Shown: positions 9,676 through 56,974 of the stretch, in pieces
Layout of the letters: every line of letters begins with the position of its first letter
Position numbering within the stretch: the first letter of the stretch is position 1
NCBI GenBank assembly: GCA_045110695.1
Contig: JBGCGH010000043.1
Span: 12,755-76,754 of the forward strand
Direction of reading: 5' to 3'
From: Bdellovibrionales bacterium
Lineage (GTDB): Bacteria > Bdellovibrionota > Bdellovibrionia > Bdellovibrionales > UBA840
DNA: 64,000 nucleotides
Program-made: the position numbers and the translations under genes
The notes under the pieces: model-generated
The model's input: the letters and a program-made list of their open reading frames with translations, nothing else
Database searches by the model: none
Told to the model about the DNA's origin: nothing

Positions 9676-10398
9676 CTAAAGTTGGAAGTTCTCACCTAAA
9701 TAGAATTTTTTAGCAACCTCTGAGTTTGCAATTTCCTCAGCTGTTCCCACTACTTGGATCTCCCCCTCCTTAAGTATATACGCATGATCACAAATACCCA
9801 AGGTTTCCCGGACATTATGATCGGTAATTAGTATTCCTATACCTTTGTTGGTGAGGTGCCGGATAATTTCCTGAATATCACCCACTGCTATGGGATCTAT
9901 ACCAGCGAAAGGCTCATCTAGAAGTAAAAATTTAGGATCACAGGCCAAAGCACGGGCAATCTCCACTCTGCGGCGCTCACCACCGGAGAGCATATAGCCA
10001 AAAGACTGGGCCTTATTGGACATTCCAAATTCATTCAATAGTTGCTCTTTTTTTTCCTGCTTTTGGGCGCCTTCATAGCCCTGACTCTCGAGAGCTACCA
10101 AAATATTATCTTCAACAGTCATTTTTCTAAAAATGCTAGCTTCTTGAGGCAAGTAGCCAACGCCGTTGCGGGCACGCTGGTACATCGGCATATCAGTAAT
10201 ATCTTTTTCATCCAATGAAACACTACCAGTGTCTGGCTTCACCAAGCCAACAACCATATAAAAAGAAGTTGTTTTTCCGGCACCGTTGGGACCCAATAAG
10301 CCCACAACTTGACCAGAGGAGATTTCAAAACTCACCCCCTTAACCACTTTTTTGGCTTTAAAACTTTTCCGTATCTCTTTTACTGCAAGAGTACTCAT
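9676..10398 (-). CDS. lptB: LPS export ABC transporter ATP-binding protein
   Basis: 240 aa. [36 protein letters not shown]. Conserved position directly upstream of rpoN. Confidence 0.9.
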
Positions 10399-11393
10399 AT
10401 ATCCCCATCAAGTAAGACTGGTTTTCCAGATTGTATATGGGCCTTGGCCCCTTCAACTTTTATCTTATCATCCTTGCCGGAGAAAGTAATACTCTCCCCC
10501 ACCAATTCATCCTTAGACTTTAACAGACGAGGCTTTCCCGTCATTACAATTTTATTGATTTTTGCATCAATACTGAGCTTTTCTGAAAAGGCTTGTTCGG
10601 TTTTTGATGTTAGCTCCACCCCTCCCAATAAATCAAAAGTATTCACTTCATTTTTCAGACGATCCATTTCCATTATCGCCTCAGCTCCTTTTATTAAATA
10701 TTTTTGATAGATTACTTTTACATTTTCGTTAAACCGGGCAATAGAGTTTCCACTTTGCTTGTCAAAAATTACAGAGTCGGAATTGATTTTCATTTTTTTT
10801 CCAAAATTAGAAATTTGCTCACTAGCAACTTCCCCTAGAACCTGAATTTGGTTTGTATTCAGGTTTGCATTCATTGTTTTACCCGTGACATTCATTATCT
10901 CTTTCGATTTACCTCTGTAGGATAGCCCGAGGGAGTCTTGAGCAACCAGGCTAGAACTTTCTGAAAAGTATTTTAAATCTTGAGTAGTAAACCGATAGCC
11001 ATCGGAGCTAACAACATCTACGCCACCAAAGAAGTGCATATCCTTATTATCAACATTAAATTTGGCGTAAACAGATTCAACTAGATAAGTTACTCCAGCT
11101 GCGGCAAAAAAAGTTACTTTAGATTGATTAAGTTTCCAAAGCTCAGCAGTCTTTAAGGACTCTGCACTTTCCGCGATCATGTCCCATCGCTTTACACCAT
11201 CTTCAGCCTCCACGAGCTTTACTCCCAACATTTTTTGTTCGGTATCACTCGATAGATCTGAAGAAGAAAAGAACTCCTCAGCGCTTCTCAACTCCAATTC
11301 CTCAGGACTCAAAAAACTAACCTGAACAAACAGTCCAATAGTTAGCAGCAGGGATATATAGTAAAATAGACTTCTCAATCTCTTTCCTCTCAA
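10395..11393 (-). CDS. LptC/LptA-like (OstA-fold) LPS transport protein, possibly a fusion
   Basis: 332 aa, TTG start, N-terminal TM anchor ([17 protein letters not shown]). The rest is beta-rich, and the C-terminal half resembles LptA (F.ENVKV....YLIKG..A....; G.V.L......A.S.KL..D....KIV.TG.P.L). Has a 4-nt overlap with lptB. It is the only lptC/lptA candidate at this locus. Confidence 0.55.
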
Positions 11394-11588: not shown

Positions 11589-12533
11589 CTATTGTTGAAT
11601 TTCTACTTTGAATTTATCAGGCCAAACAGAAAATTTGCTAAAATCTATGTGGAAATTTTTGACTACCCTTCGCGACTCAATCTTCGATAATCGGGAGTAG
11701 TAGTTAACAAACTGAGCTTGGAAAGAAGTCCGCTGGCCGGCCAGAACAGAAAAAAGAAACTCGAAGCCTTGCTGAGAATACGGGACACTTTCATATTTCA
11801 ACTTTGCTTTTTTATTTTCCCAAGCCTGAACATTTCCATTGATCGAGTGTCGTTTTTCAAAAACGAAGGATTCTTTATCCGCCTTAATATTAAAGCCAAC
11901 AAAATCTTCCCCGTCTATATCATGATTCAATACAAACTGAAGCCAAAAGGTCTCGCCCTTTGCATCTATAAGAGGAATGGCGCCAAAACTATAACATGAA
12001 GGAATTCGAATAGGTGAAAGCAGGCAATAACTTTTTACTGACCCACTAAAATGATTGATTACAACTACTCTCTCTAAATCAGAAGGACTAATTGGTTTAT
12101 CATACTTGTCGTAAAAAAACTTTTTTGTTCTGTAGATCGGTGACATGGTTTTTTGAAAATCAGTTTCCGGGTCTCCAAAGAAACGTTCTAGCCAGTTTTT
12201 AGGTTTTGAATCTAAACCGTACTCTTGGATATCGCTGCTTCCATCAAAAAACGGCAATCTAAGATTAAACCATAAGCTTGAATCATCGAAAGAAACTATG
12301 GCAGTCTCCGAGTCTGTTTCTATTTGAATTTCAGAAAAATCTTCTAGATTTTCTTTATGAGCGTATAAAAGTCCCTGTGAATTCGTTTTTGAGGATTGGA
12401 TAAAAGATCTTAGCATTGGTCTTAGCTTTGTATCTACCGAGTCCTGAAAAGCCATAAAGTCATCTTCTAGTTTTTCGTTAGAAAAACTATTCAAAGAAAA
12501 AAAACTTATGAACAAAATCAAAAAAAGATTCAA
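11589..12533 (-). CDS. Hypothetical secreted protein
   Basis: 314 aa with a signal peptide (MNLFLILFISFFSLNSFS). 3-nt gap from the upstream gene. Confidence 0.5.
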   Translation of the reverse strand: MNLFLILFISFFSLNSFSNEKLEDDFMAFQDSVDTKLRPMLRSFIQSSKTNSQGLLYAHKENLEDFSEIQIETDSETAIVSFDDSSLWFNLRLPFFDGSSDIQEYGLDSKPKNWLERFFGDPETDFQKTMSPIYRTKKFFYDKYDKPISPSDLERVVVINHFSGSVKSYCLLSPIRIPSCYSFGAIPLIDAKGETFWLQFVLNHDIDGEDFVGFNIKADKESFVFEKRHSINGNVQAWENKKAKLKYESVPYSQQGFEFLFSVLAGQRTSFQAQFVNYYSRLSKIESRRVVKNFHIDFSKFSVWPDKFKVEIQQ

Positions 12534-12536
12534 AAC

Positions 12537-14039
12537 CTAATACCTCGCCTTGCATGCCGAAGTCTCTATGGATCTAAAATCGGCTCTATTAACTATTTCA
12601 ACTATCGACTGAACAACCCGTCCCATATCGGCAATGTGCTGGGCCTCTTTATTGCTGGGAGTACCGTAGAAGATAAACTGGGAAGCTTTTCTCAAGAAGA
12701 ATTTAGTAACATCTTTGGGCGATTTTGACTGCATTTTTTCACTCTCTAACTGCTTAAAAAACTTATCCAATTCTCTTTTCTCTAGTAATTGCTTTTGCAA
12801 CTCCATTGCTTTGCCTGTGACATGTATTTTTTTCCCCATTCCGTAGGTGAGGAACATTAATGCGACGGAAAGCCCTGTTAGCATAAGTAAAGTTTGGTTA
12901 TTGGTTCCACCAACCATATAGGTTTGCATGCTGGTAACGGCTCCAAAGCTGCTTATTAGGGCCATCAAATTAAATCTAATACTGAGGTTGGAGCGTTTCT
13001 CCATTATACTTTCCAAGCGGTCCTGGTTTAAAGTCTTCTTCAATAGTCGTAAAGCAAAGTCGTCACTAAACGCCTTTTCAAAAACCCCTTGAAAAATAGC
13101 AACTACAGTTCCTAAAGCAAGTCCCAATAACCAATAGTGCATAAGGGAGTCCTGAATGATATATCCAAAGGAGGCGTAAATTAGAGGCGTAATTGCACTA
13201 AAACCCAACTCTAGCAAAACAAAGTAAAACATTGTTTCAAGTTTTAAGCCCATCACTTCTAGGTGGGCCAGTTGCCTAAATAAATTGATAGCTTTATTAG
13301 GATGTTGCTCACTACTGATATGTGAATCAAACATATGTTGGTAGAGAGGATTAAAAATCGCAAAACCTGCACTTAGAACCATCGTTAAATTAACAGAGGC
13401 ATTGGCCACCATCAAGGGCTCAGAAACTAGAATTAAAGCAACCGACACAGCAACATTATTTATAAAAAATCGAACTACGCCGATCCCAATATCTTTAACA
13501 GTTGTTAGGTGCCCATATTTTTTATCGAAGACTTCCATCAAATGAGATGGATTATACACTTTTGAACTCTTTAGTTCTAAAAGTTCCCTACGTCTTTCTG
13601 ATGTTACTAGTCTCTCTGTCTCTGCCATGCTGTACTTAAAACTTTTGTCTTCCATAATAGCGTGAGCGTTTAGACTAACTGTCGCATTAGGGTTGGACTG
13701 TTTAATCTGGTTAAATAACCCAAGCATAGAAGACTTCATATCTCCCGCTTTTGAAACATCATGAATTTTCATTTCCATCTTGATGTCATCGGGATTGTTC
13801 GAAGTTCCCTGCATTCGAACTTCGTAGCCACCCTCCTTAAGCGCAAGAATATCTCTATTCTCACCAAAAGGCAGCTTAACAGAACTATTGGAACTTGGAT
13901 TTGTCGAGTTCTGCGCATAAACAAGGAGCGGCGACAGACCTATACTGAAGATTAAAAATGATTTGATTAGTGCATCCACAAAAATACGCACGATACTTCC
14001 CGTCCTTAATTTATTTAAAATAAGAGGCAGATTTCCCAA
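12537..14039 (-). CDS. Hypothetical polytopic membrane protein
   Basis: 500 aa, TTG start (uncertain). N-terminal signal/anchor, a soluble domain of about 170 aa, then at least 6 hydrophobic helices and a charged C-terminal tail. Confidence 0.5.
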   Translation of the reverse strand: MGNLPLILNKLRTGSIVRIFVDALIKSFLIFSIGLSPLLVYAQNSTNPSSNSSVKLPFGENRDILALKEGGYEVRMQGTSNNPDDIKMEMKIHDVSKAGDMKSSMLGLFNQIKQSNPNATVSLNAHAIMEDKSFKYSMAETERLVTSERRRELLELKSSKVYNPSHLMEVFDKKYGHLTTVKDIGIGVVRFFINNVAVSVALILVSEPLMVANASVNLTMVLSAGFAIFNPLYQHMFDSHISSEQHPNKAINLFRQLAHLEVMGLKLETMFYFVLLELGFSAITPLIYASFGYIIQDSLMHYWLLGLALGTVVAIFQGVFEKAFSDDFALRLLKKTLNQDRLESIMEKRSNLSIRFNLMALISSFGAVTSMQTYMVGGTNNQTLLMLTGLSVALMFLTYGMGKKIHVTGKAMELQKQLLEKRELDKFFKQLESEKMQSKSPKDVTKFFLRKASQFIFYGTPSNKEAQHIADMGRVVQSIVEIVNRADFRSIETSACKARY

Positions 14040-14162
14040 AAGGCCCTATATTTTAAATGGCTTACTCAATTCTACTACTTGTCTTGCAATCCGCTTACCA
14101 AGAGTTCCTTTCTATAAAATTCGCTAATGATAATCAACTCTAATCACCTAAGGAGGTGTTTC

Positions 14163-14478: not shown

Positions 14479-15177
14479 ATGGAATTAAAATGTTTTACTT
14501 TTGTAGATAATTTGGTGGAAGGTCCTTTTTCAAAAGAGGAACTCAATCATTATTTAGAATCGCATGAAAATGCTAAGCAGATACAAGTTTGGTGGAAAGG
14601 TCAAAAGCACTGGTCTTTTCCGAAAGCTTTTCTACTTCATGAGCCTGAAGAAAATGTATTTGATATTCGTAAAAGTAAAGCCATCTGGTTCGTTGAAAAA
14701 GAAGGAAAAGTCCAAGGCCCACTTATTAGAGATGAAATGTTACAAGCCTTGAAAGACTCTAAGAATCTAAGTCAGGTTAAAATTTGGCAAAAAGGACAGA
14801 AGAGCAAAGCGACCGTATATCAACACAACGACCTACAAGACTCTCTAGGGATTGTTCAAAGAAAGTCTTCTCGGGCCCCAATTGTTGGAGAAGTAGAAAT
14901 CAAGAAAGAAAAGGAAACCATTCATTCTAAAATCACCTCCATCTCTATGGGGGGCTTAGGTGTTGCTGACACTCCAGATCTGGTTCAAGGTGAAATATTA
15001 GATTTAAGAGTAACAAGTCCCCTTTTAACAATGGAATTTAGCTGTAAGGGACAAGTTCGTTACAATAGTAATACAAGAACAGGAATAGAATTTGATACAA
15101 TCAACGCTGAAGCCAAGGCTAGTATTATGGAATACGTAAAGCAATTTTCTATTGATGAAAAGAAGAAGGTTGCTTAA
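14479..15177 (+). CDS. GYF_2-GYF_2-PilZ domain protein (putative c-di-GMP receptor)
   Basis: Start moved to ATG 14479 (MELKCFTF...). Two GYF_2-like repeats: GPFSKEELNHYLESHENAKQIQVWWKGQKHWSF and GKVQGPLIRDEMLQALKDSKNLSQVKIWQKGQK. C-terminal PilZ motifs RKSSR...(D/N)xSxxG as ITSISMGGLGV. Confidence 0.75.
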   Translation: MELKCFTFVDNLVEGPFSKEELNHYLESHENAKQIQVWWKGQKHWSFPKAFLLHEPEENVFDIRKSKAIWFVEKEGKVQGPLIRDEMLQALKDSKNLSQVKIWQKGQKSKATVYQHNDLQDSLGIVQRKSSRAPIVGEVEIKKEKETIHSKITSISMGGLGVADTPDLVQGEILDLRVTSPLLTMEFSCKGQVRYNSNTRTGIEFDTINAEAKASIMEYVKQFSIDEKKKVA

Positions 15178-15180
15178 AAG

Positions 15181-15792
15181 CTAAAGCGAGGCCTGGTCCT
15201 CTATCTCTTCTTCTGCGTCTTTCTTAAATTTATTTTCGACCGTTACAACAGCAAAATTTATCTCAGAGGCACCCGCTTCCGTCAAAGTAAACATTAGTTT
15301 CTTAATCGTAAGGAAATCTATTGTCTTATCTGCCTGCAAAGTTACTCGCCTAAAATCCTTATCAAATTTGTCGGTATCTTGAACTTCTGCAACGACTTCC
15401 TTCAAGCGACTCGAGGTTCGGTTTATAAAGCGAGTTTCCTCAGCCTCAACCACAGATTTAAAAAACTGAAATAGTGGATAAACAAGCCATTGTTGCTGGT
15501 TTTTAACCGAGCTTAACGGAATCACTTGATTGTCGTTTAGAAAAATCATATCTTTCGACACTATTACTACGTTAGCAGGGTTGAGTTCTCGAATTTGAGT
15601 CGCTTTGGGTAGCTGAACATCGTTTCTTAGCCTAATCACTTCGCCGGTTTCTTTATAGTTCTGAAGTAGAAAGATTGTTAGAACTGTAAACATATCAACC
15701 ATAGCCGTAAGAGAAAGCATGACCACAGAGTTGCGCTTAGCGGGCTTAGCTTTTCCTCTTCTGTTTCTGATACCTGGTACATGAATTGGCAT
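15181..15792 (-). CDS. ExbD/TolR family proton-channel subunit (AglQ/AglS-like)
   Basis: 203 aa. Basic N-terminus, then a single TM helix with the conserved Asp (LTAMVDMFTVLTIFLL). Last gene of the operon. Confidence 0.8.
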   Translation of the reverse strand: MPIHVPGIRNRRGKAKPAKRNSVVMLSLTAMVDMFTVLTIFLLQNYKETGEVIRLRNDVQLPKATQIRELNPANVVIVSKDMIFLNDNQVIPLSSVKNQQQWLVYPLFQFFKSVVEAEETRFINRTSSRLKEVVAEVQDTDKFDKDFRRVTLQADKTIDFLTIKKLMFTLTEAGASEINFAVVTVENKFKKDAEEEIEDQASL

Positions 15793-15801
15793 TATCAGTC
15801 C

Positions 15802-16263
15802 TTACTGTGTTGCGACAGCAACTTCGGGGAAGCCTGCGTTAAGAATCGCATCCATCCCTTCAATCATGTCATTATATTCCAAATTATCCTGTAAAGAAAT
15901 TGTAGCACTGGAATTCTCTGGAAATCTCTGCTTAATTTGAACTAGCTGGTTGTAAAGCTCCATCTTGTTAAAATTACCTTCTAATTTGGGTATTTGAAAA
16001 CTAGAGTTTTGAAGCTTAACTATGTAACCAGTATTTGTGAGTCGGATCTGTAAGAAAATATCTTCTACTTTTTTAATATTCTGAGAATCATTCCCCGTGT
16101 TCTTTCCATAAATAGAACTACCTAACTCAATCATTGAAACCTGGGTCCAAACTGCTGTTACAAGCAGAAATATGATACAAACACTCATCAAGTCGATGAA
16201 AGGAACCAAGTTTGGTTCTACATTAGTCTGTCTTCCCTCTGATGGTCCATCTATTTGAGCCAC
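15802..16263 (-). CDS. ExbD/TolR family proton-channel subunit (AglQ/AglS-like)
   Basis: 153 aa. LVPFIDLMSVCIIFLL TM helix with Asp. Confidence 0.8.
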   Translation of the reverse strand: MAQIDGPSEGRQTNVEPNLVPFIDLMSVCIIFLLVTAVWTQVSMIELGSSIYGKNTGNDSQNIKKVEDIFLQIRLTNTGYIVKLQNSSFQIPKLEGNFNKMELYNQLVQIKQRFPENSSATISLQDNLEYNDMIEGMDAILNAGFPEVAVATQ

Positions 16264-16273
16264 TAATACCTAC

Positions 16274-16936
16274 TTATGATTTAAGTTTATCACGGTTACT
16301 TACAACTAGATTCATGATCTTCATACTCGTTTCTTGCATATCATTTATCGCTTTACCAATTCTTAGCTGGTAGAAGCCATAGGCAAGTAGAGCTGGAATT
16401 GCCACTGCAAGTCCCGCTGCTGTACAGTTAAGTGCGTGCGATATACCTTGCGATAAAAGTTCAGCTTTCTGAGCAGCATCAGCCTGAGAAACAGCCGAGA
16501 AACCAATGATCAAACCAATCACTGTACCCAGTAAGCCTATCAGAGTGGCCACGTTACCAGAAACCGCTAGCATAGGCGTTAGGCCTTCGAGCCTAGGAGT
16601 TTCCTCTAATACAGCTCCATCTAAAGCGACTTGCACTTCTTCGTCAGGTCTTCTATTTAAAACCTGCTTTAAACCCTCTTTTACCGTGTTAGGTAAGGGA
16701 GCATTTTTATCTTCACAAATCATTATAGCTTCGCGAATATTTCCGTTCAGAATCTGCGGAAATACCTTTGATACAAAATCGTCTTTATCAACTATGAGTC
16801 GATGTAGAGCTATGAATCTTTCAATAATTAAGAAGACCGTTAGTAAACCTGTTAAAGCGATGAAATACATTGCTGTACCACCATCATTAAAGGCTTTAAT
16901 TAACCAATGAACTTGTTCCACACTTACCGGTTCCAC
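16274..16936 (-). CDS. MotA/TolQ/ExbB family proton channel (AglR-like)
   Basis: 220 aa, 3 TM helices. C-terminal GLLGTVIGLI...AL..TA.GL.VAIPAL..Y motif typical of TolQ/ExbB. Confidence 0.85.
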   Translation of the reverse strand: MEPVSVEQVHWLIKAFNDGGTAMYFIALTGLLTVFLIIERFIALHRLIVDKDDFVSKVFPQILNGNIREAIMICEDKNAPLPNTVKEGLKQVLNRRPDEEVQVALDGAVLEETPRLEGLTPMLAVSGNVATLIGLLGTVIGLIIGFSAVSQADAAQKAELLSQGISHALNCTAAGLAVAIPALLAYGFYQLRIGKAINDMQETSMKIMNLVVSNRDKLKS

Positions 16937-16951
16937 TGCAATCCTCCTTGA

Positions 16952-19126
16952 CTACCTTGCCGAGAAAGCGAAAGGGAAAGAGATTTTTGCTTCCGCACCC
17001 TGAGGTGGTTCTGGAAATCTCCATGTCTTAAGCCTTCTTATTAAACATTTTTCTATATTCTTGTTATTAATGGTACTTTTTTCTACTTTAGCACTACCAA
17101 CCCGCCCTTTAGCCCTAATAGTAAAGCCAATCGTTACTTTACCGGATAGGTTAAAATTTCGGTTCAATTCAGCATCATAACAGGCTTTAATTGCAGCCTT
17201 TTGATTTAAAATAACTCTTCGAACAGCCTCTCTGTCTATGTCTCCGAGGAATTCCTCTCCCTGTCCGCCGATATCGATTCCGGTTTTACCCTTCTGACCT
17301 AAGTTACCATCACCGTATTCATCTAAACCTGAGCCTTTACCTTTGGTATTAATATCAGTTCGTCCATAAGTCTCAGTTCCCTTGCCACCTGCTGATACTT
17401 CTTTGAGACCACTGGAGTTGTTACTTCCACCACGGCCACCACCAGCGCCAGTGACCTTTTGAGAGGCCCCACGAGTAGCGTTTGCACCCTTAGTTAATTT
17501 CGCTACTTTTTGTTGAGTTCCGCTATTTGCAAAAACCCCCAGTAGACCTGAGCTTTCAATATTAGGTTTTTTCTTCGTTTCATCTCCCTGCTTTTTCTTT
17601 GGCTTTCCTTTAAAACGACTAGGCTTCTTTGCCCCCCGTCCTTTTTTAGCAGCAGTGGTTTTCATTTTTTCTCGAATAGGATTTTTTGCACGCTTCACAG
17701 CTGCGGCCTTACCCGGATTACCCTTCGCTTTTTTAGGAGTTTTTTGATCCACCCTCGATGGACTTTTAACTATTCGTGATTTTCGAGCCTGTGTATTTTG
17801 TTTCACAGGTGCCGGTGGTTTCTCTGGGCGATTAAAAATAAAGGTAGTTACCTTTTTCTGTTTCTCTTCGAGCTCCGGTTCATCTAAATCTTTATAGATT
17901 GTGGCGACAGTATATAGAATCAAAGAAAGAGCCACTGCTAGAACAAATACCATCAGCTCATGAGGCTTCAAACCACTCAATGGACCTAAAAATAGATCTG
18001 CCGATTCTTTAGTATTAGAAATATAAAGACTAAGACCGCTTTCTAAGTCGAGTCTGAGCATTTCACCTTGCTGTAGCTCCAGAACAAAAAAAGCACCATT
18101 AGGATTGAGCCTTCCTTGCCTAGACGCTTCCTCTAGACTGATGGAATCAGATTTATTAATAAACAGCCGTCCCCTTTTTTCTTTAGGAACGATGATCTGA
18201 GAAACAGACTGGAAATTTCTGAGTAATAGTTGGGAGCTTGGTATACTATCGATATTTGGAATAACGACTTCGTTCTTAGGATGGGAACCAAACTTAACAT
18301 CTCCCTCGTTTTGTATTCGATAAGTTTCTAATACCCTATCTCCCCAAGATAATAATATTTCAAGCCCAACACCTTTTTTAGGAGTCAGTATACTGTCTAA
18401 ATCTTCATAGGAGCTTTCAGGAGCGAATGTAACTTTTTTCCTTGGAACCATTCCTATTAGATTATCGGGGCCCGGCCTCTCTTCCACTTTATCTTTTGGA
18501 GGAGTGACTGTTGCTTCAACCATCCTATCATCATCTAAACTAGATGCAGAGACTGAGCTAACTTCGCTTGGCTCTTTAGAAGTAGGTACTTCAATAGGTA
18601 TTTGAACATTTGTGACAATAGTTTTTTCGTCCTGTACTTTATCTACTGAGCCTTCTGCAGTATCCGCTTCGACTTCTTGCTCAACAGCTGGAACTTTTGG
18701 TATTTCTGGAATCTTAATATCTGGAATACTGGGCACTGGTTCAGGTTTTTTTGTAATCTCAGGAACAGTTGCTGGTACTGGAGGTACAGCAGTTTTTACT
18801 GAGATTGCCTCTGGTTGGAATGCCTTTGGAATACCAACGTGGAATTCAATTAGCGTTTCGCCAAGACGTATATTATCTCCTGTTTGAATAGGATGATCCA
18901 GAACAATTTCATTGTTTAGAAAGGTGCCTTGCTCAGACCCTAAATCGCAAAGGTAAAAATCACTTCCTCTTTTTTCAATCATTGCATGGATATTAGAGAT
19001 AGCTACATCATCTAGATTTAAATCCACATCTGCATTTCGTCCAATTACAAATTGATCCTTATTCACTTGTTTAACTTGAGCTACTTTGCCATCAATAACG
19101 ACACGTAAAAATATTGGAGTGCTCAT
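16952..19126 (-). CDS. FHA domain / single-TM / TonB_C-like (AgmX-GltG-type) protein
   Basis: 724 aa. N-terminal FHA (FVIGRNADVDLNLDDVAISNIHAMIEKRGSDFYLCDLGSEQGTFLNN), Pro/Glu-rich linker, TM LMVFVLAVALSLILYTVATIY, Lys-rich and Gly-rich low-complexity region. The C-terminal domain of about 90 aa (IKACYDAELNRN..LSGKVTIGFTI...G.V..A.V..S......IE.C...R.L..W.FP.P) resembles TonB_C / the AgmX C-terminal domain. Confidence 0.7.
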   Translation of the reverse strand: MSTPIFLRVVIDGKVAQVKQVNKDQFVIGRNADVDLNLDDVAISNIHAMIEKRGSDFYLCDLGSEQGTFLNNEIVLDHPIQTGDNIRLGETLIEFHVGIPKAFQPEAISVKTAVPPVPATVPEITKKPEPVPSIPDIKIPEIPKVPAVEQEVEADTAEGSVDKVQDEKTIVTNVQIPIEVPTSKEPSEVSSVSASSLDDDRMVEATVTPPKDKVEERPGPDNLIGMVPRKKVTFAPESSYEDLDSILTPKKGVGLEILLSWGDRVLETYRIQNEGDVKFGSHPKNEVVIPNIDSIPSSQLLLRNFQSVSQIIVPKEKRGRLFINKSDSISLEEASRQGRLNPNGAFFVLELQQGEMLRLDLESGLSLYISNTKESADLFLGPLSGLKPHELMVFVLAVALSLILYTVATIYKDLDEPELEEKQKKVTTFIFNRPEKPPAPVKQNTQARKSRIVKSPSRVDQKTPKKAKGNPGKAAAVKRAKNPIREKMKTTAAKKGRGAKKPSRFKGKPKKKQGDETKKKPNIESSGLLGVFANSGTQQKVAKLTKGANATRGASQKVTGAGGGRGGSNNSSGLKEVSAGGKGTETYGRTDINTKGKGSGLDEYGDGNLGQKGKTGIDIGGQGEEFLGDIDREAVRRVILNQKAAIKACYDAELNRNFNLSGKVTIGFTIRAKGRVGSAKVEKSTINNKNIEKCLIRRLKTWRFPEPPQGAEAKISFPFAFSAR

Positions 19127-19380
19127 TTATCAAAATCTCCTAATTCAAGCTTCTTCCCAGTACTTTCCATTTCGGGAATAAAGTCTTCTCTAAGTTGTAA
19201 CATTCGATTGAAGTTGAATCGTTTTCTTTGCAAAAGATAAAATAGCTCAGGTTTTTGAATATCACCCTGAACCAGTTCATCCTCAAAATCTATCTCAATA
19301 ACACGCTTCCCTTTTTGGTTTTGTGCCAAAGTAGTCTCACTAAAAAGTAAAAAAAGCATTAAGGGTAATAGCCACTTCAT
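19123..19380 (-). CDS. Small secreted protein (positionally equivalent to gltF)
   Basis: 85 aa, signal peptide MKWLLPLMLFLLFSETTLA. Has 4-nt overlaps with both neighbours. Confidence 0.45.
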   Translation of the reverse strand: MKWLLPLMLFLLFSETTLAQNQKGKRVIEIDFEDELVQGDIQKPELFYLLQRKRFNFNRMLQLREDFIPEMESTGKKLELGDFDK

Positions 19381-20243
19381 TTACCACCTCCAGTAGGAAC
19401 TTTGGATTTCAAGCTTGAAATACGCGCCCTTAAATTTCTAATTTGATTACGATATTTGGCATCAGAATTTATCGCCTCGATACGAATCAGCTCAGACTCT
19501 GCAGATCGATAGTCTTTTGCATCGACATAGGCTCGTACTAAATTTATTCCTATATTTACAAGCCTATCTGATTTTGAATAAGCTTGCTTAAGAAAATTAA
19601 CTGCTTTTTTTGCCTGACCATTCATGGCTAGACTCACTCCGTAGTTGTTAATTAAAGTAAAATCTTTGTCGTCAATATTTCTAATAAGCTCTAGAGAAAC
19701 TAAGGCTGATTTGTAGTTATTGTACTTTAAATACAATTTCGATAAGTTATGTAGAGCCACTAAATTGCTTCTGTTTTTAGCTACGGATTGTTTGAGAGTT
19801 TTTATAGCCTGAGAATCATCACCTTCAATTTGATCAAGGATCGCCAAATTATTAAGGACGGCACTTGAGTTCTCAGCTGACTTAGATGCTTTTTCCCAGA
19901 ATATCCTAGATATACCATATTTTTTTTCTTTGTAGGCTGCCATTCCTAATGCAAAGTTAGCAGAATAATTTTGTGGCTCTCGTTCTAGAATTATAGAAGA
20001 TAGCCTACGGATTTCACGGCGATTGTTTTTTAAAACGGCTGCCTTAAGCTTTTCCTCTAGACTTGGTTTATTATAGGTAAATTGTTGCTCTTCTTTCTCA
20101 AGTATTTCTTTACTTGATCGCTTATCGTTTACCGGAGAATCCGTTTTAGAATCTGTTGTTTTTTTATCACCGCTGGAACAAGCTTGAAGTAGAGCCAAGG
20201 TAAGTATCAATAGATTACTTTTCAACATCGAAACCTCCCACAT
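19377..20243 (-). CDS. TPR-repeat lipoprotein (GltE-like)
   Basis: Lipobox LTLALLQAC. The likely true start is the Met at 20228. Multiple TPR-like A..YN.G......G....A repeats. Confidence 0.65.
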   Translation of the reverse strand: MWEVSMLKSNLLILTLALLQACSSGDKKTTDSKTDSPVNDKRSSKEILEKEEQQFTYNKPSLEEKLKAAVLKNNRREIRRLSSIILEREPQNYSANFALGMAAYKEKKYGISRIFWEKASKSAENSSAVLNNLAILDQIEGDDSQAIKTLKQSVAKNRSNLVALHNLSKLYLKYNNYKSALVSLELIRNIDDKDFTLINNYGVSLAMNGQAKKAVNFLKQAYSKSDRLVNIGINLVRAYVDAKDYRSAESELIRIEAINSDAKYRNQIRNLRARISSLKSKVPTGGGK

Positions 20244-23200
20244 CTAAGCGCAACCATTTCACAAACTTATCCTCTTTGTATCTTTCTGGATAAATCTGAG
20301 TTAATTCTTTGTATACCGATTTAGTGTCGCTGTTGTAGACATCTAACTCATAAGATCGACGGATTGCCGTTTCATAGTTTTCATTTGCTGTTTGAATCAT
20401 TGGATTGGCAATCTGACCAATTCTAGATTTATATTCAGCTACTTGATCTTTTTGAATTGCTTTGGGAATTGGGGCAGCGAGTATCGCTTTTCCGAGGTGT
20501 CTATAGGCTCTACCCGCCCACACCAAGGCCTTTACGATTTGATCTCCCGAGTTTAAAGAAATTATTTGACCATATTCTTTATTCAAAGCATCCAGAAGTT
20601 GGATCTTTTTCTGAACTACTTGAGCCTGCTTTTGAGGATTTGCAGGTATTTTTAGGCCTACGAATTCGTTATACTTGCGCCTGCTGAGTTCAAATCGGGA
20701 CTGAGCGATAAAATATTTATTTTTTGCATTTTTATAAGTAAATGCCGATTTTCGATACCACTTTAAAGCATCTTTTTCGTTTCTAAAACTATCTGCCAGC
20801 TGTCCTAATTCAAATGCGGCTTCGCTAGCTTTATTTAGGTCATAGATAGTTCCACCGAGAAAGAGTTTATAGAATTTAATCGCCTGACGTCGCTTCTTAT
20901 TTTTTTGGTACATTTTGGCTAGTTCAAATTGTGCATTCTTTTTTTCCTGTCCTCTTGAGATTGCTGCCAAAGCTGCATAGCTATAGATCGCCTTAGAATA
21001 GTTATTCGTACCTCGATAGATTACAGCGCTGTTAAAATAAAGATTTTTTCTAATTTTGTCCTTTTTGTATGTATCGGCATACCTTAAAAATAGTCCGGCC
21101 GCTTTTTCTAAATCACCTATTTTCTCGTATAAGTTTGCCTGAAGTAATATTGATTTTTTCCTAATTTCCGGATTAAGCTTGTTAGTGTTGTTTATAGCTT
21201 GTTGATACAAACCGATAGCCTCAAGCACCTTTCCAGATCTCTCGTAGTTTACGGCTGCATTGTATTGAGCCACTGGAACCAAGGAACTTTTTCCATACTT
21301 TTTAGCAAATGCTAAGAAGCTAATCGCCGCTTTTAAATACTCACCTTTTTTCTCATAATCTTGCCCCTGATTAAAGGCGGCTTTCTCAACAATATTTCTA
21401 ATATCGTTAGTTAAGTTTTTATTCGCCTTGAAGCCAGGTGTTAATAGAAGCTCGTTTCCAACTTTTGCCATACCGCTAAAGTCTTGTTTTATATTGTATA
21501 TATCAAGCAACAAATTTGCAGAATACTCTGCATACTTAGACTTAGGCGCTGAACGAACAATAGCTTTAAATAGGGTCTCTGCCTCAACAAAACGATTGTA
21601 CTCATAATATACTCTAGCCAATCTAAATCGAACCTCAATACTCTCACTTGAGTTTGGAAACAACTTGATATGATCCGTTGCCGCATTAACAAACCTTTTT
21701 GTTTCAGAAGACATATTCACTGGTTGATCAGATTTAGACTTCTTCTTTGGCGATTGAGGAAGAATTTGTTCCATAGAAATGAGTCTGTTTAAACTTGCTT
21801 TTCTAGTAAATTTCCCCGTTTTACCGCCTGTTTTAATAGACCCGGCGTACATATTTGCAGCCTTGGAAAACTGATCTTTATCAAACATCAATTCCCCAAA
21901 ATAGAAATATAGTTCATGGGCAAATCTACCGTTAGGAAAATATCTAAAGTAAAGGTTATAACCAAATTTCGCCTCATCAAAGGATGTACTAGATCTGGTG
22001 TTTTCATGAATTTGATGCCATTTCAATGAGTGGATTCTTAGGATTTTCTCTCTGTCGAAATTCGCATCCTGCACCACGGAACCATCTGTCTTATTTTGCG
22101 CATACCACTGAGAGTTTTCAGAAAAATCTTTTAGCCAGCGAACAAGCTCCCTTTTAAAAGACTGCTTTGCTCCAGCATTGGAGTAGTTGAGTACAATTTG
22201 CTTTTGGTACTGATAAGATTTTTTAGCTGATGGATCCTTAGCGATCAAACTCTTAAATATACTATCAGCAGATCTATATTTACCTTGATTTGAGTATGTA
22301 TAGGCTAAGTTTTCAAGCATCTGAGTATAAGATTTGCCACCCAACCTTCTAAAGAAACTCTCAGCCTTTGCTGGATCTCCTCCATAGGAATAGAACATTA
22401 CAATATCTCTCAATCCCTCAGTGGCAAGTCGGATTCTAGCCCCACCACCTTGCTCTTGTTCTTTTTTAGCTCGAACAATAAGTCTCGCCAATCTTTTCAC
22501 TGATTCTTTATGGTTCCCCATTCTGTAGGCACACCATGCACTCTTATACATGGCAAAACTGTAGAGCTTAGCATCTCTACTTTTTAGTACTCGGATATAA
22601 AGGTCGTAGGCTTTTTTCCAATCGTCTCGTTCAAAATGGTACTCTGCCAAGGCAAAATTAGCTTCAACAACAAATGGGGATTTAGGGTAGTTTTTAATCA
22701 ATTTTGTGTATGTAGACTTTCCCTGCTTAATCTGACCTAATTCAAATTGAATATAGCCAACGAAAAACAAAGCTTGGTCGATTCGACTGTCTTTTGGAAA
22801 ATCTTTGATAAACCAACTATAAAGCTGTGTTGCTCGTTTATAGTAGTCTTTCACAGGTTTAAGATTTAATTTTGGCCTTCTCTTTCTTTTACTTTTGGAT
22901 TTTTCGTAAGCCTGGATTCTTCTATCGTAATCACTAAATATCCGCTGTTCCACTAGACGGGCTTTTTCTACATAAAGCTCACCCTGGCGCAACCAAAGCT
23001 CTCCTCTTCTTTCACTTTTTTGATACTTTTTGATCAGCCTAAAAAGCCTCTCTATACCATCATCAACAACAGCCTCAAGTTTTGCCACTTTATCGGCACT
23101 TTGACGCTGCAAAATTTTAGCTGAAGGCGGTTTTATTTTAGATAAATCCCTTGAGGTCGCTTCATTTTGAACTTTTGTAGACTTGGTGTTAAAATTTAAT

Positions 23201-23331
23201 TTTGTCTTAGTCTTTTTAGATTTACCGATATTTTTTATATAATCACCAATCGTTTTTTGATTCTGAGCCTGAAGACTAGAACCTAAAAACAATCCTGATA
23301 GTAAAAATAATGTTATCGCTATATTTCTCAT
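20215..23331 (-). CDS. Large periplasmic TPR-repeat protein (GltD/AgmU-like)
   Basis: 1038 aa, signal peptide, TPR-like repeats throughout (repeated ALF.LG..Y...G.Y..A...F pattern). Confidence 0.65.
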   Translation of the reverse strand: MRNIAITLFLLSGLFLGSSLQAQNQKTIGDYIKNIGKSKKTKTKLNFNTKSTKVQNEATSRDLSKIKPPSAKILQRQSADKVAKLEAVVDDGIERLFRLIKKYQKSERRGELWLRQGELYVEKARLVEQRIFSDYDRRIQAYEKSKSKRKRRPKLNLKPVKDYYKRATQLYSWFIKDFPKDSRIDQALFFVGYIQFELGQIKQGKSTYTKLIKNYPKSPFVVEANFALAEYHFERDDWKKAYDLYIRVLKSRDAKLYSFAMYKSAWCAYRMGNHKESVKRLARLIVRAKKEQEQGGGARIRLATEGLRDIVMFYSYGGDPAKAESFFRRLGGKSYTQMLENLAYTYSNQGKYRSADSIFKSLIAKDPSAKKSYQYQKQIVLNYSNAGAKQSFKRELVRWLKDFSENSQWYAQNKTDGSVVQDANFDREKILRIHSLKWHQIHENTRSSTSFDEAKFGYNLYFRYFPNGRFAHELYFYFGELMFDKDQFSKAANMYAGSIKTGGKTGKFTRKASLNRLISMEQILPQSPKKKSKSDQPVNMSSETKRFVNAATDHIKLFPNSSESIEVRFRLARVYYEYNRFVEAETLFKAIVRSAPKSKYAEYSANLLLDIYNIKQDFSGMAKVGNELLLTPGFKANKNLTNDIRNIVEKAAFNQGQDYEKKGEYLKAAISFLAFAKKYGKSSLVPVAQYNAAVNYERSGKVLEAIGLYQQAINNTNKLNPEIRKKSILLQANLYEKIGDLEKAAGLFLRYADTYKKDKIRKNLYFNSAVIYRGTNNYSKAIYSYAALAAISRGQEKKNAQFELAKMYQKNKKRRQAIKFYKLFLGGTIYDLNKASEAAFELGQLADSFRNEKDALKWYRKSAFTYKNAKNKYFIAQSRFELSRRKYNEFVGLKIPANPQKQAQVVQKKIQLLDALNKEYGQIISLNSGDQIVKALVWAGRAYRHLGKAILAAPIPKAIQKDQVAEYKSRIGQIANPMIQTANENYETAIRRSYELDVYNSDTKSVYKELTQIYPERYKEDKFVKWLRLDVGGFDVEK

Positions 23332-23338
23332 CTACTTC

Positions 23339-24949
23339 CTATTTACAGCTACTCTTGCCGAGGTAGTGATAGTTACCTATTTCATCCAACCAATATTCCC
23401 CAAGATATGGCCAATACTCGTAGCCATTCTGGATATAAAAATCTCTGTCTGCATTATTATCTATAGTTTGCTCTTGGCCTGAAAGAATTTGAGCACGAAG
23501 AGTATCTTTTTGAGAGTTGGCCAACTCAAATCTAGCAAATTCTTCTTGTTCTTCGATTCTTACGACTTCTTTGTAGTACTTAACCAAATAACCCCTGACA
23601 GATAAGCCAAGTCTTCTTTTAGCTGCCTTAATTCTCTTCTCTAAAAGCCGAGACAAATTCTTACCTACTCTAGAATTTTGCCATTCTGGCGATAGTTCAC
23701 TTAATCGGTCTTTTTCAGAGACTAATTTAAAAACGTAGCTAACACCACTTTGAACATCACCTTGGTTATAGATATTTTTATATATCATCGTTGGTAAACG
23801 ATACTTTTTAGAGTCTATTTCCTGACTAAAATTCTCATAATCATTATAAAACACACTGAAATCGTTATATATTTTATTCGACCTTGGCTTCGATTTTAGA
23901 TAAGACCGAATGTCTTTAGCTACTGGAATATATATACTTTTAAATAAATCCAAAGTTTTTGCCATTTCATCGTATTTACAAATATAAAGGTAAACTATAC
24001 CCCTCAATAATAAGGATTCCGGTAAGAAATCATTTCTATAGTAGTCAGAGTGAAGTGTGTGGAAATTACTAAGTACGGATCTAAACTTTCCGGTCCTAAG
24101 CTGAGCCCAAGACATTTCAAAAAGCCCCTCATGCCAAGCTTCGGAATCCCTTGGGACTTGTCTATAGTATTCAACCGCTTTATCCCACATATTTGCCTGG
24201 TAATAAGACCTTGCCAGCCCTAAAACAGCCGCAACTCGGTTATCATTTGTAACCGGAGCGTCTTTATAGCTTTCGAGAAGGTTTTGAAACTTTCTAACTG
24301 CCAATCTGGGTTTTCCAATTTTTGCTGATATATACGCAGACTTATACTTAGCCCTGGCATAAAACGCGCTACTAGAACGAATCATCTCATAGTACTTTAC
24401 AGCATTGGAATAGTCTTTTTTACGTTCGTACACTTCAGCGATTCTAAATCTTAAAAGATCCCACCTAGATTTAGGGAATTTCTTAATCTCAACCTTTGAA
24501 AGCGCATAGTTTAGTAACCGACTATCTTCAAGATAACTCGCAGATATCACAAGTTTTTCTAGAGCCCGATTTATGTATTTACTATTGCCGAGCTGGATGG
24601 TTCCAACAAACTGATAAGAGGCTCCTTGGTAGAGCTTCATTTCATAAAGCATCAAGCCAAGTAAATATTTGATTTGAGGGCGCTCTTTTCGAAATAGCTT
24701 GTCCTTACTTAATCTATATAAAACCTTAGTTGCTTGCTCATAGTTTCTTGCTCTTGCAAGACGAAGAGCAAAGGACATTTCACGGGCTTTATTTCTTTTG
24801 TAACGGCTTTTACGTTTTTTTCTCTTCTTTGATTTAGATTTTTTAACATTGCTCGTTTTTTTCTGAGCATAGACATTGTCAATACCACCTACTGTAGCGA
24901 CACCGAAACCTAGAAACATGGAGAGTATGATCATTGCGATTTTAATCAT
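23339..24949 (-). CDS. TPR-repeat periplasmic protein (GltC-like)
   Basis: 536 aa. Signal peptide, Lys/Arg-rich stretch (KKSKSKKRKKRKSRYKRNK), then TPR-like repeats. Confidence 0.6.
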   Translation of the reverse strand: MIKIAMIILSMFLGFGVATVGGIDNVYAQKKTSNVKKSKSKKRKKRKSRYKRNKAREMSFALRLARARNYEQATKVLYRLSKDKLFRKERPQIKYLLGLMLYEMKLYQGASYQFVGTIQLGNSKYINRALEKLVISASYLEDSRLLNYALSKVEIKKFPKSRWDLLRFRIAEVYERKKDYSNAVKYYEMIRSSSAFYARAKYKSAYISAKIGKPRLAVRKFQNLLESYKDAPVTNDNRVAAVLGLARSYYQANMWDKAVEYYRQVPRDSEAWHEGLFEMSWAQLRTGKFRSVLSNFHTLHSDYYRNDFLPESLLLRGIVYLYICKYDEMAKTLDLFKSIYIPVAKDIRSYLKSKPRSNKIYNDFSVFYNDYENFSQEIDSKKYRLPTMIYKNIYNQGDVQSGVSYVFKLVSEKDRLSELSPEWQNSRVGKNLSRLLEKRIKAAKRRLGLSVRGYLVKYYKEVVRIEEQEEFARFELANSQKDTLRAQILSGQEQTIDNNADRDFYIQNGYEYWPYLGEYWLDEIGNYHYLGKSSCK

Positions 24950-25707
24950 CTGTAGTCAACCTCCGGAAAAAAGAAGCTCGCGCCAAAAGTTAAATGTATA
25001 TTCGTATTGAGTGACTCAGTGCTGTCTTTTGGAGTGGCGTTATACCAAAAGAAGCTAGTGTCCCATCGGATAGTTAAAGACTTGCTAAGAGCAAAGTGCT
25101 GACCAAAACCAAAATGTGCCGTGGGGGCCGACTCACCAGAGGAAGTGTTTGTGCTCCCCGCACCAAAAGTCAGGTAGGTTTCAAATGGAATAATGGAATC
25201 TTCAAAAAATGCCATTTTCCCGTAGACAGGAGTATATTTGGCATCGATCCCATAGAAAGATTCAGGAGTAACTGCCAAATCAGAGTCTACACCCCTATCT
25301 TGTAAATCGTTTGTAACTTTCTTATTGGATACTGAAGAAGAGAAGGCATTTAGCTCTAATCCCCATTTTTCTGTAAAATAATAACCGGCACGGAAACTAA
25401 GTATCTGGTTTACAAAAAAGGAATCATTTAAAATAACGCCAATGTTGGGAAAAAGTTCGAATCGTTCTGTTTTTGAAAGATACTTCCTCTGAATCATAGC
25501 TACATTTTTAAACGGTGAAAGAAACCTTAATCCAGATACATCTTCTATCTTCAAATCTTTAAGGTTAAACTCTCCTTCTCTTTTCTCATCTGCACTATCT
25601 TCCGCCTCATAAAGGAAGTCATCCACACCTGAATCTTCCGATCCTTGCTGAGCAAAAAGTGGCAACGTAAATGCTATACCTAAAATTGTAATCCATTTTA
25701 AAAACAT
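24946..25707 (-). CDS. Outer-membrane beta-barrel-like protein (GltA/GltB-like size class)
   Basis: 253 aa. Signal peptide, alternating hydrophobic beta-strand pattern, aromatic-rich C-terminus (GASFFFPEVDYR). 4-nt overlap with the downstream TPR gene. Confidence 0.5.
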   Translation of the reverse strand: MFLKWITILGIAFTLPLFAQQGSEDSGVDDFLYEAEDSADEKREGEFNLKDLKIEDVSGLRFLSPFKNVAMIQRKYLSKTERFELFPNIGVILNDSFFVNQILSFRAGYYFTEKWGLELNAFSSSVSNKKVTNDLQDRGVDSDLAVTPESFYGIDAKYTPVYGKMAFFEDSIIPFETYLTFGAGSTNTSSGESAPTAHFGFGQHFALSKSLTIRWDTSFFWYNATPKDSTESLNTNIHLTFGASFFFPEVDYR

Positions 25708-25876: not shown

Positions 25877-26620
25877 CTATAAGAATGGAAAGAAAGAAAA
25901 CACACCGAACATTAAAGTCATATTAAAGAAATTTTCATCCTCAAAGGGTGGAGTGTTGACCGTAGAAGCCCCCAGAAAGTCTGGGAAAATATAATTTTGA
26001 ATTCGTAAATCTAGATTAAGACCCCAATTGGGACTGAAATAGAATTTTTGTATAACTCCAGCCTGTAGATAGGTCGCGCTTTCACCACCATAAGTAATGG
26101 AACCCAGACCAAGGATAGTGGAAGTGGATAGATTATATACCCCTTGCTTGGTAATACTAATTTTCCCGTAGTAAGGGGTGTATTCCCAATTTAATGCGGC
26201 ATAACTCTCAAGCAGTGGTACGTTATCCCAGTCACCAATGTTGATTGGTGGTCCTGAAATTTGGTCCTGAAAATTATTTCCTGAGGAAATGTAAGAACCA
26301 TAATCCACTGATACAGCGTGAACTTCATTAAGGTGGTAACTAAAATGCAATCGAAGGAGGTTATTATCAAAAAATGCATCGTTCAGTGTCGAACCTAGTG
26401 CAAATCCAACTTCTCCACGATTTTCTTTCACCACGTTTCTTTTTCGTAAAACTTTTTTCACTCTAAACACTGGCAATACGGTCTCTGTAGCCAATTCTTT
26501 TTTATTAATTTTAATTGTTTTCTGTTTCTTCTCTTCTGAAAAAGCGCCAAGAGCGAATACACTACAGATAGAAAAAACAATAAGAGGTTTGATTTTATTA
26601 AACACTAGAGCTCCCGTCAC
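25877..26620 (-). CDS. Outer-membrane beta-barrel-like protein (GltA/GltB-like size class)
   Basis: 247 aa, paralogous in pattern to 24946..25707 (YTP.YGK...., ...FG.G...). C-terminus FGVFSFFPFL. GTG start overlaps the end of kdsC (an alternative GTG lies at 26605). Confidence 0.5.
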   Translation of the reverse strand: MTGALVFNKIKPLIVFSICSVFALGAFSEEKKQKTIKINKKELATETVLPVFRVKKVLRKRNVVKENRGEVGFALGSTLNDAFFDNNLLRLHFSYHLNEVHAVSVDYGSYISSGNNFQDQISGPPINIGDWDNVPLLESYAALNWEYTPYYGKISITKQGVYNLSTSTILGLGSITYGGESATYLQAGVIQKFYFSPNWGLNLDLRIQNYIFPDFLGASTVNTPPFEDENFFNMTLMFGVFSFFPFL

Positions 26621-48074: not shown

Positions 48075-48179
48075 ACTCTACCTCCTACAATCCTATCGGC
48101 TTTAGAATTAAAAGGTCTAGTTTTGTGAAAAGGTTTAAACAAAAGTTGGTGACTCTAGTTTCATTATGAGAATTTGTGC

Positions 48180-49379: not shown

Positions 49380-49381
49380 GA

Positions 49382-50263: not shown

Positions 50264-50300
50264 ATTCTAAGTTGCCTTCAATTTAAATCCAAGTCGAGAT

Positions 50301-56794: not shown

Positions 56795-56974
56795 AAAAAG
56801 ACTCCTTTGAATAAGAAGACTTTCTAGCAGGTTTCAGCCTGAAAATCTGCACTACATATAAAGTTTACTGAAAAGAGAGCTTCTTCTGAGCTCCAAATTG
56901 ATACATTTGAGCCTATAATGCATTGCGGAAACTATCAGACTAAAGGCGGACCAGAAAAAATCCGAAAAGAAGTC

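Follow-up and report, generated by a model that had tools for sequence, protein, structure and literature searches.

The cytoplasmic-side switching of the Agl-Glt gliding machine, the "bacterial focal adhesion", is understood only in Myxococcus, where it involves MglA, AglZ and GltJ. Attia et al. have described how the GYF domain of GltJ binds a proline-rich sequence of AglZ at the cytoplasmic face of the machine, and how MglA-GTP acts on the linker and the zinc ribbon (ZnR) adjacent to GYF (PMC11135422). Bdellovibrio-type predators also glide and need a homologous cluster for predation (PMC6561027). Luciano et al. named Bd0828-0838 as the best candidate for the Bdellovibrio gliding apparatus: it contains gltA, B, C, D, E, F and G together with aglRQS, and GltH, I, J and K as well as AglZ-type partners are reported to be missing from these predators (PMC3169522). 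Transposon mutants of B. bacteriovorus in Bd0830-0838 are predation-defective (PMC6561027 supplements). Here we analyze a 64,000-nucleotide stretch of a Bdellovibrionales genome (contig JBGCGH010000043.1 of assembly GCA_045110695.1, positions 12,755 to 76,754; "the window"), in which a gene for a GYF_2-GYF_2-PilZ protein (14479-15177, + strand) lies beside a cluster of this kind. We tentatively read the protein as a cyclic-dinucleotide-switched, soluble, cytoplasmic GYF adaptor for the Agl-Glt machine, and give this reading somewhat less than an even chance. It is a concrete, cheaply testable candidate for the missing motor input.

Close functional parallels are the brake or clutch proteins YcgR of E. 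coli and Salmonella and MotI (DgrA) of B. subtilis. Like the window protein, these are small and soluble, with a C-terminal PilZ domain and an RxxxR motif at the junction to an N-terminal interaction module. They act on an ion-driven motor of the MotA/TolQ family, which is what we propose, by analogy, for the GYF-GYF-PilZ protein, and the latter may work in a similar way. They differ in that their N-terminal module is a PilZN/YcgR_2 or a second PilZ-like domain and their target is the flagellar motor, whereas the window protein has a GYF_2 tandem, AglRQS/Glt genes as neighbors, and a serine in place of the D/N of the second PilZ motif. PilZ proteins that modulate motility or reversals have also been found in Myxococcus, a bacterium with an Agl-Glt machine: reportedly, in the 2021 work of Kuzmich et al., these are PlpA, PixA and PixB. 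They are said to be stand-alone PilZ, PilZ-receiver and PilZ-PilZ-acetyltransferase proteins with no GYF domain, and we know of none that is encoded beside aglRQS.

Architecture and family of the GYF-GYF-PilZ protein

The open reading frame (ORF) at 14479-15177 runs on the + strand from an ATG start to a TAA stop and encodes a product of 232 amino acids. The start codon is backed by family alignments, in which homologues open 3-7 residues ahead of a conserved W-F. The protein is soluble, without a hydrophobic segment. Searches of Pfam matched PilZ (PF07238) over residues 127-221, covering profile positions 2-101 of 102, at 44.7 bits against a gathering score of 22.5, and GYF_2 (PF14237) at a whole-protein score of 33.4 bits against a gathering score of 25.8. 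Both domains are present in 60/60 scanned homologues, with a best GYF_2 E-value of 8e-24. The two GYF_2 repeats are related to each other: the profiles of repeat 1 and repeat 2 align with an hhalign probability of 98% (E 1.2e-13), and the hidden Markov model (HMM) of repeat 1 matches repeat 2 of the window protein at 3.8e-11.

Repeat 1 comprises residues 5-53 (14491-14637, +; best Pfam stretch 9-45), repeat 2 comprises residues 70-123 (14686-14847, +) and abuts the RxxxR motif, and the PilZ beta-barrel, which Foldseek matches to PilZ structures with bound cyclic di-GMP (c-di-GMP), comprises residues 127-221 (14857-15141, +). We modelled the protein with AlphaFold2 (AF2) from an alignment of 60 homologues, with a mean pLDDT (predicted local distance difference test) of 92.4 and a pTM (predicted template modelling score) of 0.63. 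The model displays equal beta-beta-alpha-beta-alpha units at 5-53 (strands 5-9, 12-17 and 36-39; helices 19-28 and 48-53) and at 70-123 (strands 70-74, 77-82 and 101-104; helices 84-92 and 117-123), barrel strands between 138 and 207, and a long C-terminal helix at 210-231, as expected of the six-stranded PilZ barrel. Low confidence is restricted to the 54-69 linker which, together with the pTM, fits flexibly tethered, loosely coupled modules. The architecture that the initial annotation had read from the letters alone, two GYF_2 repeats and a C-terminal PilZ domain, is borne out by Pfam (the HMM check with PF14237 and PF07238), hhalign and AF2.

An exhaustive HMMER search of 1.84 billion representative proteins returned 236 proteins at E<=1e-3. 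The stricter limit of E<=1e-10 left 174 clusters. Most matches have about 230 residues and align over their whole length. A word-indexed homologue search returned only the query itself when given the single protein, and only 6 proteins when given a 60-sequence profile. The 174 homologous clusters and the pLDDT of 92 rule out a chance ORF.

Searches of GTDB species genomes with a degenerate DNA pattern built on family sequences gave at least 120 stretches. The sensitivity of the pattern is about 41-50%, so genome counts given here are samples, not censuses. Among the 120 listed stretches, 95 encode true members, and three distant metagenomic loci (L001-L003) add to these. Members were found only in Bdellovibrionota; a few of the listed stretches bear other labels, and these are probably mis-binned contigs.

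A neighbor-joining tree splits the family into two clades. Among the listed loci, clade 1 consists of the window and 49 GTDB loci, and clade 2 of 46 loci, among them every locus labelled Bdellovibrio sp. The window protein scores 236 bits with the clade-1 HMM and 174 bits with that of clade 2. Not one of the 95 listed genomes (0/95) has both clades in one assembly. If all genomes carried the pair, a pattern with sensitivities of 41% and 50% should have shown it in about 28. The two clades are thus probably one gene per genome, located at different places in two lineages.

Six longer family variants of 405-440 residues (P0002, P0004, P0005, P0010, P0014 and P0046) match the query in two stretches. 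One of them, P0010, has two SxGG motifs, which suggests a GYF-GYF-PilZ protein with a second PilZ domain.

When the family profile was searched against all PDB sequences, the best match was the GYF domain of GltJ/AgmX (7z3c, E 9.2e-6, via repeat 1), ahead of Alg44 and MotI. The GltJ analogy of the initial annotation is strengthened by this match, and by the reported absence of GltJ from Bdellovibrio (PMC3169522). Both proteins have a bacterial-type cytoplasmic GYF domain and both are encoded with glt/agl genes. GltJ, however, is an inner-membrane protein with a transmembrane (TM) helix, a periplasmic TonB_C-like domain, one GYF domain and a zinc ribbon, whereas the window protein is soluble and has two GYF repeats and a PilZ domain. 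We found no ZnR match, no Cys clusters and no TonB_C/AgmX-PglI domain in the window protein.

Two other identities were considered and rejected. The protein is not a fragment of GltJ, as it has no TM helix, TonB_C domain or ZnR, and it is not a member of the YcgR family, as Pfam gives no PilZN match in its N-terminal half.

The neighboring Agl/Glt cluster and conservation of gene order

The TAA of the PilZ gene closes at 15177, and the convergent ExbD-like ORF has its stop codon at 15181-15183. The gap of 3 nt that had been noted between the two genes is therefore exact. Beyond the 3' end of the PilZ gene, the cluster is entirely on the minus strand. The convergent gene is the last of the motor operon and encodes an AglS-like ExbD/TolR protein (15181-15792; Pfam ExbD) in the same position as Bd0838 (AglS) (PMC6561027). 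It is followed by genes for an AglQ-like ExbD/TolR protein (15802-16263; Pfam ExbD, 58 bits) and an AglR-like MotA/TolQ/ExbB proton channel (16274-16936; Pfam MotA_ExbB, 95.6 bits), the latter having thousands of orthologues at 55-65% identity. The next gene (16952-19126) encodes a GltG-like protein of 724 residues made up of an FHA domain, a Pro-rich cytoplasmic linker, a TM helix and a TonB_C/AgmX-PglI C-terminal domain; it matches Pfam FHA, NCBIfam myxo_SS_tail at 107.7 bits and, over its full length, NCBIfam gliding_GltG at 232.8 bits (cut-off 650). Farther along are genes for a small CglF/GltF-like protein (19123-19380; gliding_CglF, 39.9 bits), a GltE-like TPR protein (19377-20243; gliding_GltE, 39.6 bits, and Pfam TPR), a large TPR protein of 1038 residues in the GltD/AgmU position (20215-23331), a GltC-like TPR protein (23339-24949; gliding_GltC, 179 bits), and two GltA/B-like, myxo-type outer-membrane beta-barrels (24946-25707 and 25877-26620; OMP_myx_plus, 110 and 82.5 bits, both above cut-off).

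The NCBIfam matches to GltG, CglF, GltE and GltC all lie below the curated equivalog cut-offs. The large TPR protein does not match the GltD model, and is assigned from Pfam TPR, its place in the cluster and the analogy to Bd0832 (PMC6561027). The gene content of the cluster equals that of Bd0828-0838. With one MotA/TolQ, two ExbD and two outer-membrane barrel proteins alongside the Glt-like ones, the motor neighbors proposed by the initial annotation prove by NCBIfam and Pfam to be a genuine Agl/Glt-type set.

The TPR genes of this cluster vary between clade-1 loci. In L124 (705-4559), L125 (702-4556) and L129 (698-4633), the TPR gene in the GltD position encodes about 1284-1311 residues and no separate gene of GltE size comes after it, which points to a fusion of GltD with GltE. 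In L126-L128 and the window, the GltD-position and GltE-like TPR genes are separate.

The placement of the PilZ gene is conserved in clade 1. Among the listed loci, lptC/A is the divergent neighbor in 45/45 of those with a visible flank, and aglS is the convergent neighbor at <=200 bp in 29/43 and at <=5 kb in 39/43 informative loci, from 49 species-level genomes. In 10 of these loci, aglS is located 0.2-5 kb away past inserted genes; in 4 loci, a visible flank of 1.5 kb or more has no aglS, and 6 further flanks are too short to tell. The distant metagenomic loci L001-L003 have the same gene order. The order is kept despite PilZ protein identities of 25-40%. The reverse test gave a similar result: 5/6 loci picked by AglR alone carry a GYF_2+PilZ gene between aglS and lptC. 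Co-occurrence with Glt/Agl clusters thus holds for clade 1, by both the 39/43 listed loci with aglS within 5 kb and the AglR-seeded loci, and it does not hold for most of clade 2.

Several features of the neighborhood weigh against a role as motor adaptor. The PilZ gene runs convergently to the motor operon and so does not share its transcript. Among the listed loci, the adjacency to lptC/A is more constant than direct adjacency to aglS, and at least 10 clade-1 loci have other genes inserted between the PilZ gene and aglS. At L126, one of the AglR-seeded loci, the motor cluster is there but the PilZ gene is not, nor is there an lptC downstream. Clade-2 genes are found between FMN-reductase/Kup/patatin genes and MnmC-like/radical-SAM/nrdAB genes, mostly with no motor genes. 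The convergent orientation, the constant link to lptC/A and the location of clade 2 away from the motor mean that the position of the gene could be frozen synteny.

If so, the protein would be a genuine c-di-GMP effector for a non-gliding process, such as envelope/lipopolysaccharide (LPS) export, the sigma-54 regulon or housekeeping, and its proximity to aglS would be a gene order frozen in one lineage. We regard this as unlikely, but as an explanation to be taken seriously. The gene shares a divergent promoter region with lptC/A-lptB-rpoN. With lptC/A as the immediate neighbor in all 45 listed loci, direct adjacency to aglS in 29 of 43 compares poorly, 10 loci having insertions of 0.5-4 kb and 4 having no aglS in the visible flank. 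The series kdsB-pyrG-kdsD-kdsC, glt/agl, PilZ, lptC/A-lptB-rpoN-hpf-metK-lepA looks like one long conserved block, and the setting of clade 2 between FMN reductase/kup and MnmC-like/radical-SAM/nrdAB genes indicates that motor genes need not be nearby for the family to function. The B. bacteriovorus transposon-sequencing (Tn-seq) predation list, which has Bd0830-0838, has no gene directly after Bd0838 (PMC6561027 supplement).

Against this stands the similarity of the GYF repeats, which have their nearest match in the GYF domain of GltJ, a gliding protein. Retention of the gene order at 25-40% protein identity would also be unusual without selection, and no PilZ protein known to act in Lpt or RpoN function came to light. 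In the window, the adjacency to lptC is lost through two genes inserted at 11589-14039, and the 3-nt junction with aglS is kept, an arrangement that is unusual in clade 1. Finally, there is a second, independent association with an AglRQS-like set in the genus Bdellovibrio. We continue to favor the adaptor for the Agl-Glt machine. Should the protein have no connection to the motor, it would be a clean case of frozen synteny misleading guilt-by-association.

That second association is confined to one clade-2 subclade of Bdellovibrio species. In Bdellovibrio sp. HCB185ZH (L007, 1038-4695, -), a clade-2 gene is followed on the same strand by genes for an M14 zinc carboxypeptidase and a distinct MotA_ExbB, ExbD and ExbD set, so that the family independently meets an AglRQS-type motor again. 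The same M14-MotA_ExbB-ExbD-ExbD arrangement after a clade-2 gene is present in L114 and partly visible in L066 and L084.

This arrangement fits the published description of Bd1482, a PilZ protein encoded at the 5' end of a gliding operon which Hobley et al. proposed in 2012 as a gliding receptor (PMC3271064); Bd1482, compared here by description only, may be a member of the family. Both Bd1482 and the window protein are encoded by a PilZ gene beside a TolQR/Agl-type gliding cluster and invite the same hypothesis (PMC3271064). They differ in that Bd1482 is at the 5' end of its operon, whereas the window gene belongs to the other clade, is convergent with a Bd0828-0838-like cluster, and encodes an Ala-ending tail. 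The pairing of a PilZ gene with a gliding operon in Bdellovibrio thus goes back to 2012 (PMC3271064), and the idea is not wholly new. A full-text literature search returned no paper discussing a GYF-PilZ protein, and GYF does not occur in the PilZ survey of Galperin and Chou. What would be new here, judging from sequence and with nearly even confidence, is a PilZ motor regulator that has a GltJ-type GYF tandem as its output.

The lpt side of the neighborhood starts with an LptC-LptA fusion (10395-11393, -; Pfam LptC and LptD_N, NCBIfam LptC/LptA), the first gene of lptC/A-lptB-rpoN. A fused protein of about 330 residues is found in the lineage of the window and also in L001, L003 and L124-L129. 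Of the two genes between lptC/A and the PilZ gene, seen only in this genome among the loci compared, one (11589-12533, -) encodes 314 residues with no family match that look secreted, to judge from a hydrophobic N-terminus. The other (12537-14039, -) encodes 500 residues with no family match, which by sequence look like a multi-pass membrane protein.

The flanks of the window locus are kdsC-kdsD-pyrG-kdsB on one side and, on the other, the PilZ gene, the two unknown genes, lptC/A, lptB, rpoN, hpf, metK and lepA. From 8203 to 31560, the glt/agl and PilZ genes are thus located inside what is normally a single LPS block, between kdsB-pyrG-kdsD-kdsC and lptC/A-lptB-rpoN-hpf. All clade-1 loci keep the lpt side of this order, and the kds side is seen in the window. 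A sigma-54 promoter scan gave nothing above chance and no + strand site upstream of the PilZ gene; a weak sigma-54-like site at 14085-14100 (-), upstream of the 12537-14039 gene, is at chance level. A generic promoter and terminator scan of the window stayed at background level.

The PilZ motifs and the predicted ligand

The RxxxR motif of the window protein is R128-K-S-S-R132 (14860-14874, +), and both Arg residues are invariant in 60 homologues. The second motif, S154-I-S156-M-G158-G159 (14938-14955, +), is a variant. Residues S156, G158 and G159 are conserved in the 60-sequence family alignment, as is the hydrophobic position before S156, but the position that is D/N in canonical PilZ domains is S in the window protein and, with few exceptions in either clade, S/T/M in the family. 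The family-wide motif is therefore [ST]hSxGG and not the textbook [D/N]xSxxG. In the profile search against PDB sequences, the S154 position aligns to D44 of the Alg44 DLSAGG. The initial annotation had credited the protein with both c-di-GMP motifs: RKSSR stands, with its invariant Arg residues, and the second motif does not stand in canonical form.

The absence of D/N from the second motif makes the affinity or specificity for c-di-GMP uncertain, which also tells against the proposed switch. The fold of the barrel is close to that of nucleotide-binding PilZ domains: Foldseek places the MotA-binding clutch MotI/DgrA (5vx6) first and also matches the c-di-GMP-bound PilZ domains of Alg44 (4rt0), MapZ (5xly), YcgR (5y6g), BcsA, PlzA and MrkH, at E-values of 3.5e-7 to 1e-4.

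Loss of the canonical D/N across the family would be expected if the PilZ domain were degenerate. The barrel would then bind no nucleotide, as in Pseudomonas PilZ and XC1028-type proteins, and would serve a constitutive GYF adaptor only for contacts with other proteins. Adaptors with a non-binding PilZ domain are well established (10.1101/814665). They typically lack both motifs altogether (10.1101/814665), whereas R128, R132, S156, G158 and G159 are invariant or nearly so in 60 diverse members with a mean identity of about 35%. Since this invariance is hard to explain without a ligand, we consider a degenerate PilZ domain improbable.

A different ligand has also to be weighed. Gliding exit of B. 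bacteriovorus depends on 3',3'-cyclic GMP-AMP (3',3'-cGAMP) made by Bd0367 and not on c-di-GMP, and a Bd0367 mutant that makes only c-di-GMP does not glide (PMC9140294), a finding that again runs counter to a c-di-GMP input. The reported effect of cGAMP is on gliding-gene transcript levels, and the paper names no receptor (PMC9140294). The ligand of the family could be 3',3'-cGAMP, or both dinucleotides, with S/T in place of the guanine-contacting D/N relaxing or changing base specificity. The family would then be a candidate for the cGAMP receptor acting on Bdellovibrio gliding.

The pattern of conservation is consistent with this: the D/N position is S/T/M in nearly all of both clades, at the very place that aligns to D44 of Alg44, yet RxxxR, the S and the GG are invariant. 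The requirement for Bd0367 cGAMP in gliding exit comes without a named receptor (PMC9140294), and our literature search found no report of a PilZ receptor for cGAMP, so that this position seems to be vacant. That same search found no PilZ domain shown to bind cGAMP, and S/T may be just a tolerated substitution for c-di-GMP binding. A transcript-level effect (PMC9140294) would moreover not be obviously explained by a GYF adaptor. The case for cGAMP is purely inferential, and we give it a small probability.

A proposed switched adaptor for the motor, and other features of the window

The candidate c-di-GMP input to gliding of the initial annotation thus stands in part. The architecture, the clade-1 synteny and the likeness to GltJ speak for it, and the orientation, the lptC link, clade 2, the variant motif and the cGAMP result limit it; its general idea has a precedent from 2012. 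The analysis shows the domains, motifs and fold, the family, its gene neighborhood and the likeness to the GltJ GYF domain, whereas ligand, partner, direction of the effect on the motor and any part of the Ala-ending tail in proteolysis are what we infer.

In the adaptor reading, the PilZ barrel would bind c-di-GMP via R128xxxR132 and S154-I-S156-M-G-G159. As RxxxR comes directly after the last helix of the second GYF repeat, a ligand at the GYF2-PilZ junction could reposition the GYF tandem: binding would re-orient it or clamp it against the barrel, in analogy to the N-terminal domains of YcgR and MotI. Such repositioning would change which proline-rich cytoplasmic segment is held by the GYF surfaces. 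The level of the second messenger would thereby be linked to how the TolQR-type (AglRQS) gliding motor assembles or works. In this way the protein could supply the GYF function in trans where GltJ is reported to be missing, with the nucleotide replacing MglA-GTP as the switch.

The best candidate partner is the Pro-rich linker past the FHA domain of the neighboring GltG-like protein, whose cytoplasmic segment (residues ~98-160; 18647-18835, -) is a putative GYF ligand. Pro makes up 21.7% of the first 60 residues past FHA. Across residues ~95-260 of GltG homologues (L003 and L124-L129), there is an F-x-V-G-I/V-P-K-P-x-A-P-P motif directly past FHA and a second motif, K-T-F-A-P-P-S, ahead of the TM helix, with variable Pro-rich sequence between the two.

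The C-terminal tail of the window protein, KKKVA (15160-15174, +), belongs to a clade-1 pattern of Ala endings and is a possible ClpXP-type degron. In clade 1, 68/114 representatives and 35/53 locus proteins end in AA, and most others in VA, AS, TA or SA. From composition, 0.6 AA endings would be expected across 154 family proteins, and none of the clade-2 proteins ends in AA. The Ala-rich tail resembles ClpXP degrons of the ssrA/CtrA type, and the pattern of endings suggests regulated proteolysis specific to the motor-linked clade 1.

The most far-reaching version of the adaptor combines all of these elements. The family would be the missing Agl-Glt switch of Bdellovibrionota, a soluble stand-in for the ZnR-GYF part of GltJ in which a cyclic dinucleotide replaces MglA-GTP; its [S/T]hSxGG pocket would make it a receptor of 3',3'-cGAMP, or of both cGAMP and c-di-GMP, for gliding, and its clade-1 Ala-Ala tail would place it under timed proteolysis of the ClpXP type. 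We think it quite improbable that all of this is correct. A confirmed adaptor could connect a defined machine with the large, mostly unassigned PilZ repertoire of the predators and perhaps also with the orphan cGAMP signal.

Elsewhere in the window, engB (30964-31560) marks the far end of the kds block, and an IS110-family transposase gene (31963-32982, -; DEDD_Tnp_IS110 and Transposase_20) lies about 400 bp upstream of it. A signalling cluster at 47364-50717 (-) encodes an OmpR-type response regulator, a histidine kinase, an HDOD-domain protein and a single-domain receiver. Outside any flagellar operon, 56918-57421 (+) encodes a stand-alone FliG C-terminal-domain protein of 167 residues (Pfam FliG_C, 96.9 bits); a FliG-like hypothetical protein, Bd0878, is among the predation-defective Tn-seq hits of B. 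bacteriovorus (PMC6561027 supplement).

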